Positions 8,798 to 19,927 of a DNA stretch of 36,349 nucleotides are shown one piece after another (position 1 is the stretch's first letter; the number at the start of each line of letters is the position of its first letter). Under the pieces are notes generated by a model that worked only from the letters and a program-made list of their open reading frames with translations, did not search any database and was not told the origin of the DNA. Made by a program: the position numbers and the translations under genes. The stretch is from a virus (taxonomy: Duplodnaviria; Heunggongvirae; Uroviricota; Caudoviricetes): IMG/VR virus record IMGVR_UViG_2718217867_000002, positions 1-36,349 of that record. One strand, 5' to 3'.

Positions 8798-9163
8798 ATG
8801 ACTGAAAGCATAGAATTTGTTTTGCCTTACCCGCCGACGGTGAATACCTACTGGCGACGTCATGGCAATACGTATTTCATCTCGGAAGCCGGAAAGCGTT
8901 ATCGCCGTGATGTGGCGCTAATTGTTCGCCAGCAGCGGCTGAAATTAAGCCTGTCCGGAAGGCTGGCGATAAAGATTATTGCAGAGCCACCGGATAAGCG
9001 CCGCCGCGACCTGGACAATATCCTGAAGGCACCACTGGATGCGCTGACGCATGCCGGACTACTTATAGACGACGAGCAGTTTGATGAAATCAATATTGTG
9101 CGCGGTCAGCTCGTTCCTGGTGGGCGGCTGGGGATAAAAATCACAGAACTGGAGTGCGCATGA
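8798..9163 (+). CDS. rusA: RusA-family Holliday junction resolvase
   Basis: 121 aa; MTESIEFVLPYPPTVNTYWRR... and DLDNILKAPLDALTHAGLLIDDEQ are typical RusA; start overlaps the upstream stop. Confidence 0.9.
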   Translation: MTESIEFVLPYPPTVNTYWRRHGNTYFISEAGKRYRRDVALIVRQQRLKLSLSGRLAIKIIAEPPDKRRRDLDNILKAPLDALTHAGLLIDDEQFDEINIVRGQLVPGGRLGIKITELECA

Positions 9164-9849
9164 ATAACCAGTATTTACAGTTTGTGCGTGAGCAGCTCAT
9201 TATCGCCACCGCTGATTTGAGTGGGGCAACAAAAGGTCAGCTTGAAGCCTGGCAAGAGAATGCCATGTTCGATACAGGGCGTTACAGGCGAAAAAAAATC
9301 CGGTACCGCGATGAAGTGACTGGAAAAATGATAACGCGGGATAATCCACCAATCCCGGGAAAGCAATCGCTGGCGAAGGGGACGTCAATTCCTCTGGTCA
9401 GTCCGGTTGAGTTTTCGACATCATCGTGGCGGCGGGCTGTTCTGTCTCTTGAAGAACATCATAAAGCCTGGTTGTTGTGGTGTTACAGCGGGAGTATTTG
9501 TTGGGAATATCAGATCGCGATAACACAGTGGGCGTGGAATGAATTTAATACTCAATCCGGTACCAGAAAAATTGCAGGGAAAACGCAGGAACGCCTGAAA
9601 AAATTAATCTGGCTGGCGGCGCAGGCAGTAAAAGCAGAACTTTTTGGTGGGGAAGGTTATGAATACCAGGAGCTGGCATTACTGGCGGGAGTGACAACTA
9701 AAAACTGGTCCAAAACATTTACTCGTCACTGGGTTGCAATGAAACACATTTTTCACCGACTTGATAGTGAGGCTTTATTGTTTGTAATGAGAACACGTTC
9801 AAAACAAAAGGCGGCATTTTCAAAGCAAAGTGTTGCAAAAGTAGATTGA
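9160..9849 (+). CDS. Late-gene antitermination protein Q-like
   Basis: About 230 aa between rusA and the lysis cassette; ATG overlaps the rusA stop (ATGA); assignment is mainly positional. Confidence 0.65.
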   Translation: MNNQYLQFVREQLIIATADLSGATKGQLEAWQENAMFDTGRYRRKKIRYRDEVTGKMITRDNPPIPGKQSLAKGTSIPLVSPVEFSTSSWRRAVLSLEEHHKAWLLWCYSGSICWEYQIAITQWAWNEFNTQSGTRKIAGKTQERLKKLIWLAAQAVKAELFGGEGYEYQELALLAGVTTKNWSKTFTRHWVAMKHIFHRLDSEALLFVMRTRSKQKAAFSKQSVAKVD

Positions 9850-9861
9850 AAGGCATATATT
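9833..9861 (+). promoter_or_regulatory. Candidate late promoter pR' (TTGCAA-17 nt-TATATT) spanning the end of Q
   Basis: Sigma70-like hexamers with 17-bp spacing; a -10-like GATATT lies just downstream and could act as a pause element. Confidence 0.4.
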
Positions 9862-9912
9862 TCATGCAAATCTGATATTTTGCTGATTTTGTACGTGATG
9901 GCAAAAGCAAAC

Positions 9913-9940
9913 AAAACCCGCCCACAAGCGGGTTTTTTGT
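9913..9940 (+). terminator. Intrinsic terminator downstream of Q (candidate tR')
   Basis: AAAACCCGC-ccacaa-GCGGG followed by TTTTTTGT. Confidence 0.5.
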
Positions 9941-10005
9941 GCCACTTATCTCGGATAGACATGGTGAATGCGCTGGTGGAGGAGATAAGGGTGATTTTTG
10001 AATGC

Positions 10006-10034
10006 TTGCAACATTGATTTCGTAACGTTATTAT
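10006..10034 (+). promoter_or_regulatory. Candidate promoter immediately upstream of the tRNA cluster (TTGCAA-17 nt-TATTAT)
   Basis: Sigma70-like hexamers; the -10 ends about 9 nt before the first tRNA. Confidence 0.4.
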
Positions 10035-10043
10035 CCTGCGCCC

Positions 10044-10119
10044 GGCCCTTTAGCTCAGTGGTGAGAGCGAGCGACTCATAATCGCCAGGTCGCTGGTTCA
10101 AATCCAGCAAGGGCCACCA
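10044..10119 (+). tRNA. tRNA with CAT anticodon, Ile2-like (ileX/ileZ-type); could be called Met from the anticodon alone
   Basis: 76 nt; acceptor GGCCCTT/AAGGGCC; anticodon loop ACTCATAAT; TTCAAATCC T-arm; CCA encoded; resembles E. coli ileX. Confidence 0.8.
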
Positions 10120-10120
10120 G

Positions 10121-10197
10121 CCGCCACTAGCTCATCAGGAAAGAGCGTCAACCCTTTAAGTTGAGTGTACGAGGTTCGAGTCCCCGGTGGCGGTCCA
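10121..10197 (+). tRNA. tRNA-like gene of uncertain isotype (anticodon loop CCTTTAA, reads as UUU/Lys but with C at position 33 and an A-C mismatch in the T-stem); possible pseudo-tRNA
   Basis: Acceptor CCGCCAC/GTGGCGG with CCA; D-arm TAGCTCATCAGGAAAGAGC; T-loop TTCGAGT. The cloverleaf folds by hand but has non-canonical features. Confidence 0.45.
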
Positions 10198-10199
10198 GT

Positions 10200-10275
<76 letters not shown>

Positions 10276-10278
10276 TAT

Positions 10279-10353
<75 letters not shown>

Positions 10354-10358
10354 GTTAG

Positions 10359-10485
10359 AGTCTTTCAGTCTGCGATGATGGGAAATCCCGGAGTGACTGA
10401 AAGACGTTTAAGTTATGAATGATCGCCTTTTTTTGCAAAATTGCTGTGCAGAAATACTAACCTTCGGGCAGGCGATCATTCATAA
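10359..10485 (+). promoter_or_regulatory. Two long perfect stem-loops downstream of the tRNAs (candidate terminator or RNA-processing structures)
   Basis: Arms GTCTTTCAGTC/GACTGAAAGAC (11 bp, 24-nt loop) and TTATGAATGATCGCC/GGCGATCATTCATAA (15 bp, 43-nt loop). Confidence 0.4.
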
Positions 10486-10645
10486 GCACTCTGCTTTTAT
10501 TCCGATTAACTGTGGGTGGTTTGTTGGATAGAGTGCTTTCCTTTCTGTATATATCGTTTCGCCCGCTTTTGCGGTTTTTTCTTTTCAAATCCCTTTCATT
10601 TCTCAGTGTAAAACTACGCCATCCGTTATTTGCGGAGGTGAGGCT

Positions 10646-10861
10646 ATGAAATCCATGGACAAAATTTCAACGGGCATTGCCTACGGCACCTCCGCAGGCA
10701 GTGCTGGCTACTGGTTTTTACAGTGGCTTGATCAGGTCAGTCCGTCACAGTGGGCTGCGATTGGTGTACTGGGGAGTCTGGTTCTGGGCTTCCTGACTTA
10801 TCTGACAAATCTGTACTTCAAAATCAGAGAAGACAAGCGTAAGGCTGCACGGGGAGAGTAA
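10646..10861 (+). CDS. Class II holin / pinholin (S21/EssQ-like), dual-start motif MKSMDK
   Basis: 71 aa, two TMDs, charged C-terminus; closely resembles phage 21 S; GGAGGTGAGG RBS. Confidence 0.9.
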
Positions 10862-19621: not shown

Positions 19622-19927
19622 ATGATGCCCACTCTGGAAGAGCTTCGTGTTCAGTGCCGGATTGATGATGACAATGAACAGGAGAATTCTCTTCTTATGA
19701 TGTATCTGGCTGCTGCCAGGGAAGAGGCTGAAAAGTTTTTAAACCGGACGCTTTACGATGAAACTGTTTCTGAGCAGGATACGACCGGGTTTGTAATAAC
19801 ACCTCTGATAAAACTGCGTCTTATGCAACTGGTTGGCTACTGGTACGAGAACAGGGAAATGCAGGATGCAGTGCCTGATTTTTTCTATACCGGACTGCGG
19901 ATGTATCGGTTTCATCCCGGGACATAG
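19622..19927 (+). CDS. Head-tail connector / DNA-packaging protein (gp6-like)
   Basis: 101 aa; position after capsid. Confidence 0.7.
   Translation: MMPTLEELRVQCRIDDDNEQENSLLMMYLAAAREEAEKFLNRTLYDETVSEQDTTGFVITPLIKLRLMQLVGYWYENREMQDAVPDFFYTGLRMYRFHPGT

Follow-up and report, generated by a model that had tools for sequence, protein, structure and literature searches.

What occupies the 292 bp between the last tRNA gene and the holin gene of a lambdoid, P27-like Escherichia coli prophage, and why should so short a region be so rich in hairpins? The sequence is IMG/VR record IMGVR_UViG_2718217867_000002 (36,349 nucleotides, nt; "the window" below means this whole stretch), and the region lies at positions 10354-10645. 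A first-pass annotation, made from the sequence letters, had noticed its inverted repeats and expected Q-dependent read-through terminators there. Our answer is a different one: positions 10354-10585 are, on balance, best read as a 3' trailer, belonging to a phage tRNA operon that is complete in itself and yields a conserved, trans-acting RNA of ~225 nt. The parts of this reading do not stand equally firm. That a conserved + strand RNA forms the trailer of a phage tRNA operon is very likely, and for a discrete RNA with a function in trans we see the chances as evenly split.

The region contains two long perfect inverted repeats, one of 11 bp (10360-10370 / 10395-10405, with 24 nt between the arms) and one of 16 bp (10413-10428 / 10470-10485, with 41 nt between the arms). 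Both had been reported in the first-pass annotation, the former with its correct arm length and the latter as 15-bp arms around a 43-nt spacer; a third, 9 bp long (10484-10492 / 10530-10538), had escaped it. Repeats of this size are well above chance: when the region was shuffled 500 times, no perfect inverted repeat longer than 11 bp arose, and 2 of the 500 shuffles had one of that length. Folding, proposed at the time as a check, did reveal stable structures. The + strand RNA folds at -95.2 kcal/mol (z = -4.7), a stability equalled by 0 of 200 shuffles, and the fold of the - strand is less exceptional (z = -3.7).

About 190 nt of the + strand (10354-10541) fold into three domains, HP1, HP2 and HP3. 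In HP1, a 13-bp lower stem leads through an asymmetric internal loop to a short UGGG/CCCG stem, whose tip loop is variable. In the internal loop, a GAU bulge (10374-10376) precedes GA (10377-10378) opposite GA (10391-10392), giving the succession of regular helix, 3-nt bulge, tandem G-A/A-G, U-G and three G-C pairs; the pair after the tandem G-A (3b-3n) is U-G or, in variants, U-U (the 3' strand then reading CUGA) or A-G. The core is invariant in all 26 copies of our alignment, A2, whose members share less than 97.5% mutual identity, and across positions 10374-10382 and 10389-10397 there is little or no variation. Matched as a sequence pattern to the established consensus, the internal loop would qualify as a kink-turn. 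Its strands AUGAUGG and C(G/U)GA resemble those of box C/D-type kink-turns (RUGAUGA / CUGA); unlike box C/D snoRNAs, however, the element is no snoRNA-like guide RNA, and the kink is assigned from the sequence pattern only. HP2, found in all copies, has a 15-bp closing stem (10413-10428 / 10470-10485) around a three-way junction, from which emerge an 8-bp helix (10430-10437 / 10447-10454) capped by the invariant loop AAAUUGCUG and a mini-hairpin, CC-UUCG-GG (10461-10468). HP3 follows HP2 with no spacer, and probably stacks on it; its outer helix is 8 bp long (10486-10493 / 10529-10536) and its inner helix, rich in G-U pairs, 10 bp (10501-10511 / 10518-10528).

The fold is maintained by selection on RNA. 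RNAalifold on the 26 copies gives 60 pairs in seven helices, with double compensatory changes at 10 pairs. Standard pairs make up 97.5% of the cells, compared with 39-48% when the partners are slid by 1-3 columns; 76 cells are changed on both sides, against 26.5 in shuffles; and the covariation score of 0.220 (0.147 in shuffled alignments) is reached by 0 of 500 shuffles. HP3 occurs in at least three stem variants, and additional variants of HP1 add further compensations. Since G-U makes up 13.7% of the paired cells and the complement pairs in 84.5% of cells, against 97.5% for the + strand, the structure is selected as + strand RNA, co-oriented with the tRNAs and late genes, and not as a DNA palindrome; the same figures speak against a protein-binding site, the alternative that had been offered for the longer repeat. 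While the stems differ by ~25% between clades, the loops UCUGCGAUGAUGGG, CCGGAGUGAC, UUUGCAAAAUUGCUGUG and GGUGGUUUGUUGG are invariant or nearly so, which indicates that the unpaired parts are recognised in a sequence-specific manner, beyond mere thermodynamic stability.

The element is also tied to its neighbours. The distance from the end of tRNA-Gly(UCC) to HP2 is 61-62 nt, shrinking to 4-6 nt in copies without HP1; this spacing applies to 76 of 98 distinct contexts, most of the others being decayed tRNA-Gly remnants or truncated loci. In the window, HP1 begins 6 nt past the tRNA-Gly 3' end. The cluster has the order CAU, a variable slot, Thr UGU and Gly UCC, the CAU tRNA being Met according to ARAGORN and Ile according to PGAP. 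Among prophages, the second slot (10121-10197 in the window) holds Lys UUU, Arg UCU, Phe, Leu or pseudo-tRNAs, and the other three are constant. Upstream of the tRNAs, a promoter motif, TTGCAN-17 nt-TATNAT-9 nt-tRNA 5' end, is kept across otherwise unrelated backgrounds: its upstream neighbour may be tR' or a DNA methylase gene, and several spacer variants have it too. Downstream, an intrinsic terminator stands 20-40 nt past HP3 in most copies, often as two or three in tandem, and beyond the terminators come holins of at least six different types. With the holins so diverse and tRNA-Gly constant, the element travels with the tRNAs, not with the holin. It lies on the same strand between the operon's last tRNA, which ends at 10353, and the operon's probable terminator at 10563-10585, and given the tRNA-Gly junction, the terminator and the promoter motif, we conclude that promoter, tRNAs, structured RNA and terminator constitute an autonomous unit, a moron between pR'-tR' and the lysis cassette.

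The terminator itself varies in strength. In the window it is a 4-bp stem, CCGC-UUUU-GCGG (10563-10574), followed by U6 (10575-10580), with a free energy (dG) of -6.6 kcal/mol; close relatives have a 6-bp version (dG -13.7 kcal/mol) and other relatives stems of 8-10 bp. The terminator-like hairpin that the first-pass annotation placed at about 10557-10585 is thus real but weak in this copy: it scores under the threshold of the terminator scan, which calls none within 10354-10645. The window's copy has lost two stem pairs, reading GCGGUU where relatives have GCGGGC, and because of this loss (dG -6.6 compared with -13.7) read-through toward the holin may be higher in this prophage.

The element is not rare. 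Its 292 bp are present in 539 of 5426 complete E. coli genomes (~10%), always in the chromosome and with a median of one per genome; carriers include IHE3034, ST131 and avian pathogenic E. coli (APEC) strains, and none of the 60 matches listed in complete E. coli genomes has an annotated feature beneath it. Four phage records, including the Stx2f phage phi467, carry it at 98-99% identity, and the copy in phage HK639 is 76% identical; apart from a 'hypothetical protein' call in two phage records, the element is unannotated, and a RefSeq locus identical to this region of the window has the same feature annotation. More than 119 loci came back from each of two exact-motif scans of IMG/VR, and our covariance model of the element, R1, hits the window just once, at 204 bits. 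With one genome scanned per species, the element was found in Enterobacteriaceae only, namely in E. coli, Shigella flexneri, Enterobacter hormaechei, Citrobacter sedlakii, Yokenella regensburgei and Phytobacter ursingii, and the loci inspected were prophage-like in every case. A dispersed repeat of the REP, ERIC or MITE kind is rejected by the median of one copy per carrier, the ~90% of E. coli genomes that lack the element and its prophage-like loci. The first-pass annotation would have given way had the region been a known rRNA or tRNA operon spacer copied along with host tRNAs, and it is not: a query joining the 3' half of tRNA-Gly to the element matches 5420 of 5426 genomes over bases 1-52, the tRNA part, only. 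The chromosomal glyT thus matches the tRNA and lacks the element, and the hairpins are confined to prophages. EDL933 lacks the element, so that the published O157 Hfq crosslinking and immunoprecipitation (CLIP) data are probably uninformative about it, although they come from a different O157 strain than EDL933.

The region is also non-coding. The first-pass annotation described it as free of open reading frames (ORFs); mechanically called ORFs of 31-45 aa do exist, but they are unconserved, and the conclusion holds. In the HK639 copy, the longest + strand ORF of the hairpins (38 aa in the window, 10415-10531) runs into a stop after 9 codons, and a small protein encoded there is rejected. An internal promoter at the TTGCAA of the HP2 loop is likewise rejected, lacking an acceptable -10 hexamer and being uncalled by the promoter scan.

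We propose the following course of events. In a lysogen, the tRNA operon would be transcribed from its own promoter. Cleavage by RNase E in the A/U-rich linker after the CCA, of the kind that the enzyme performs in E. coli tRNA operons, would free an RNA of ~225 nt that ends at the terminator; the hairpins would make it stable, and it would act in trans, via its invariant loops, on a protein or RNA partner. The terminator, possibly together with a 10-bp pairing that sequesters the holin Shine-Dalgarno sequence, would keep the holin silent. After induction, Q-modified polymerase from pR' would read through, and the hairpins would become the 5' end of the processed late mRNA.

Several points weigh against this reading. 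Promoter activity, RNase E cleavage, the accumulation of a discrete RNA and a partner in trans are all inferred, and the terminator of the window copy is, at -6.6 kcal/mol, weak. We know of no L7Ae-type kink-turn binding protein in E. coli. Within the window, the conserved loops have no complementary target, the duplex energies being no better than those of shuffled loops. The 26 sequences form two main clades (that of the window and that of HK639) with a few intermediates, so that independent compensatory events are fewer than the cell counts imply. Finally, HP1 or HP3 is absent from some copies, and HP2-HP3 is found 3' of a coding gene in a few loci, with a degenerate copy 5' of one; the element is therefore not a single obligatory fold.

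Two of these loci have layouts of their own. At locus L089 (2857-3014 and 2260-2410), a degenerate HP1-HP2 is followed by a gene for a 132-aa secreted protein and then by an intact HP2-HP3; at locus L125, the gene for a CPBP/Abi-like membrane protease ends 113 nt 5' of HP2. That HP2-HP3 serves as a general module in the 3' untranslated region (UTR) of moron genes is only partly supported by such cases. The layout of L089 suggests that a moron was inserted into the element, and the degenerate copy 5' of the coding gene, in pointing to such an insertion, weakens the idea of a general module.

The most serious competitor to the trans-acting trailer is a module that works purely in cis, for end protection and insulation, and gives no separate functional RNA product. 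The hairpins would block 3' exonucleases on the tRNA precursor and would later shield the 5' end of the late mRNA, and with the terminator they would block transcription of the holin. Much of what we observe would follow: HP1 starts 6 nt from the tRNA 3' end, the stems are highly stable, terminators always follow and are often in tandem, some loci have HP2-HP3 where a moron coding gene ends, on its 3' side, and the modules are lost singly. We nevertheless consider a purely cis-acting module rather unlikely, as protective hairpins need no invariant loops, no kink-turn-like loop and no conserved three-way junction, and here it is the stems that drift and the loops that do not; moreover, the HK639 element is intact though its tRNAs have decayed to fragments.

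A second possibility, and the one originally proposed for this region, is a set of Q-dependent, tR'-type read-through terminators guarding the late genes. Part of that proposal stands: the region is structured and in all likelihood transcribed, transcripts from pR' must cross the hairpin and U-tract at 10563-10585, and these do resemble a terminator, a strong one in relatives. The long repeats, however, have long loops or junctions with conserved loops and no U-tracts after them, and, as parts of a conserved, covarying RNA, HP1, HP2 and HP3 are not terminators; the empty terminator scan agrees. Furthermore, the terminator that Q would be expected to override first lies elsewhere. A hairpin at 9907-9942 (dG -16.8) stands ~45 nt past the pR'-like promoter at 9833-9861 and is the Q-controlled tR', upstream of the tRNAs; the element follows ~400 nt beyond it, past a second promoter and four tRNAs. 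The hairpin at 10563-10585 is probably a second, operon-specific terminator that Q-modified polymerase must pass, and we regard the Q-terminator explanation for the element as a whole as very unlikely.

The short RNA that would run from pR' to tR' (9859-9942) has a story of its own. It gives sub-threshold Rfam matches to isrJ and isrK (9859-9938). The corresponding place in a Citrobacter sedlakii prophage (L176 5638-5712) reaches 93.5 bits with isrJ, and that in HK639 reaches 34.6 bits; from these matches, the Salmonella 'island' small RNA (sRNA) family isrJ appears to be the lambdoid pR'-tR' RNA. Counterparts among short pR'-tR' RNAs are the lambda 6S RNA and StxS (PMC7547250; bioRxiv 10.1101/2024.10.31.621285). 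In prophage PP6 of enteropathogenic E. coli (EPEC) E2348/69 (L177 36-463), the pR'-tR'-tRNA segment is 91% identical to window positions 9850-10265; it is broken by ISEc13 after the second tRNA, and the element is absent.

The elaborate architecture, the invariant unpaired nucleotides, the kink-turn-like motif and a terminator 20-40 nt downstream might also bring to mind a riboswitch-like attenuator, whose fold determines if transcripts begun at the tRNA promoter end at that terminator or extend into the lysis genes; kink-turns do occur in several riboswitches. This is less probable still, because what follows HP3, spacer and terminator alike, differs completely from clade to clade and has no shared alternative pairing with HP3 that we could find, HP1 or HP3 can be absent, no Rfam riboswitch matches, and read-through into the holin in a lysogen would kill. 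That the palindromes act as DNA, as a site for a phage or host protein, a cruciform or a recombination signal, is barely credible: the window copy does have perfect 11- and 16-bp dyads and module boundaries in relatives coincide with hairpin edges, but relatives keep the dyads through G-U pairs, which are mismatches in DNA, and 41 nt between arms is atypical of an operator.

None of the known families compared covers the element, and a full-text search of the literature with the sequences of the conserved loops turned up nothing of relevance. The Rfam check suggested by the first-pass annotation came back empty, an Rfam 15 covariance scan giving no match at E <= 1 within 10354-10645; in five divergent copies, the Rfam scan found nothing over the element except sub-threshold istR (E 0.26-0.39) over HP3 and the terminator. 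STnc100, isrJ, isrK, AsxR, AgvB, Esr41, riboswitches and ribozymes are all rejected for want of a gathering-threshold match over the element. The Pas sRNAs of EPEC (PasA, B, C, D1/D2), searched with the probes of PMC8550237 table S6, are rejected too, as none of the probes matches within or close to the element when up to 6 mismatches are allowed; the sole loose match, PasB with 5 mismatches, is at 19641, ~9 kb away, and the PasA, PasB and PP6 loci of E2348/69 have no similarity to 10354-10645. The put antiterminator RNA of HK022/HK639 is excluded since the putL-like RNA of HK639 sits at pL, has a different fold and is linked to the element by neither nhmmer nor R1.

In position, the element can be compared with three known kinds of RNA. 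The 3'ETS-leuZ of the E. coli glyW-cysT-leuZ tRNA operon is said, in work attributed to Lalaouna and colleagues in 2015, to be an sRNA sponge. Like it, the element is placed between an operon's final tRNA and the intrinsic terminator of that operon, has a U-rich stretch and then a terminator hairpin at its 3' end, and would be a by-product of tRNA 3' processing; unlike 3'ETS-leuZ, which is roughly 50 nt long, it measures ~190-225 nt, has three structured domains and is phage-borne; the likeness is one of position, and none in sequence would be expected. The second kind comprises rnaD (species 2, 119 nt) and rnaC (species 1, 139 nt) of T4, which are likewise structured and non-coding and follow a phage tRNA cluster directly, 3' of its final tRNA and on its strand; T4, by contrast, is virulent and its unit is no moron upstream of lysis genes. 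Homology to the T4 RNAs is rejected, with no hit in the T4 region for the A2 profile in nhmmer at E <= 100 or for R1 at E <= 1. T4 rnaD (L178 2054-2172, - strand) does have CUGAUGGUUCCCUGAGU, which locally resembles the HP1 kink-turn core of some copies, GAUGAUGGGUUACCCUGAGU; with no flanking stem and no profile or covariance-model match, this resemblance of CUGAUGGUUCCCUGAGU is probably due to chance.

The third kind is defined by the leader that stretches from Q to the lysis genes, where prophage sRNA genes are known to lie (PMC4104026; bioRxiv 10.64898/2026.05.13.724894). Lambda 6S, LPR2, StxS, IsrJ/IsrK, STnc100/PasD, PasA/PasC and AsxR are located, as the element is, between Q and the lysis cassette. 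A further likeness is that the sRNAs of the pR' and moron sites are short transcription units with their own terminators (PMC4104026; PMC7547250; bioRxiv 10.1101/2024.10.31.621285; 10.64898/2026.05.13.724894). The element differs in being fused to a tRNA cluster and is far more structured than typical Hfq sRNAs; it is also in the sense orientation, PasA and several EcOnc RNAs being convergent. In HK639, an unannotated STnc100 (RF02076) match (3254-3459, score 52.6 against a gathering score of 47) falls between the second and third annotated terminators; the element there lies between the isrJ-like RNA and STnc100, which is just downstream.

The features of the locus are collected in Table 1. 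Positions 10586-10645 are part of the holin module and lie outside the RNA element, since copies with other holins diverge directly after HP3 or the terminator; the final 34 nt of the region are also found alone 5' of the same holin type in other genomes. The stretch around the holin Shine-Dalgarno sequence (10631-10640, UGCGGAGGUG) is perfectly complementary to holin codons 14-17 (10687-10696, CACCUCCGCA); the combination of this 10-bp pairing and the dual start suggests that translation of the S21-type holin is controlled by structure. In phi467 the order (1098-3508) is stx2f A/B, tRNA-Thr, tRNA-Gly, element and holin; with stx2f upstream of the tRNAs, the element and its terminator stand there between the toxin genes and the lysis genes.

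Table 1. The structured RNA and its neighbours in the window, in order of position
Feature	Position	Strand	Basis or remark
Q antiterminator gene	9154-9849	+	ORF
pR'-like late promoter, TTGCAA-17-TATATT	9833-9861	+	promoter scan; overlaps the 3' end of Q; context, outside the element
tR'-like intrinsic terminator, ends the short pR' leader RNA	9907-9942	+	hairpin and U-tract, dG -16.8
sigma-70-type promoter of the tRNA operon, TTGCAA-17-TATTAT	10006-10034	+	end of -10 hexamer, 9 nt, then first tRNA
tRNA cluster: CAU, Lys UUU, Thr UGU, Gly UCC	10044-10353	+	
A/U-rich single-stranded linker GUUAGA, 3' of the tRNA-Gly CCA	10354-10359	+	putative RNase E cleavage site
HP1	10360-10405	+	inverted repeat, fold, alignment helices 1-2, 2 compensatory pairs
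HP2	10413-10485	+	inverted repeat, fold, alignment helices 3-5, 5 compensatory pairs
HP3	10486-10536	+	alignment helices 6-7, 3 compensatory pairs, at least 3 stem variants
U/A-rich single-stranded spacer, HP3 to terminator	10537-10562	+	possible Hfq-type site
Probable weak intrinsic terminator of the tRNA operon: CCGC-UUUU-GCGG, U6, CUUUU	10563-10585	+	
5' UTR of S21-type holin, Shine-Dalgarno GGAGG at 10634-10638	10586-10645	+	
S21-type class II holin, dual start MKSM	10646-10861	+	followed by YdfR-like gene, SAR endolysin, Rz

Overall, the kind of RNA described here is already known, from tRNA-operon trailer RNAs and prophage leader sRNAs, and the family appears to be new. The element is common yet falls outside any Rfam family, and it bears the signature of a functional RNA in its covarying stems, invariant loops and kink-turn-like core. 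The map of the late leader is corrected as well: the Q-controlled terminator lies upstream of the tRNAs, and the tRNAs are an independent unit, predicted to be expressed in the prophage, with their own promoter and terminator. This bears on how tightly the lysis genes, and in phi467 also stx2f, are insulated in lysogens, and the element offers a genetically tractable system for the role of stable RNAs co-transcribed with phage tRNAs, a question asked since species 1 and 2 of T4. Tentatively, and with the odds somewhat against it, we suggest a new family of phage kink-turn non-coding RNAs, made constitutively in lysogens as a by-product of the tRNA operon and acting in trans via the invariant loops, one possibility being a decoy or sponge that binds a host RNA-binding protein or sRNA. 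If this is true, the element would be the temperate-phage counterpart of the unexplained rnaC and rnaD of T4, present in about one in ten E. coli strains, including extraintestinal pathogenic E. coli (ExPEC) and APEC, and in Shigella and Stx2f phages besides.

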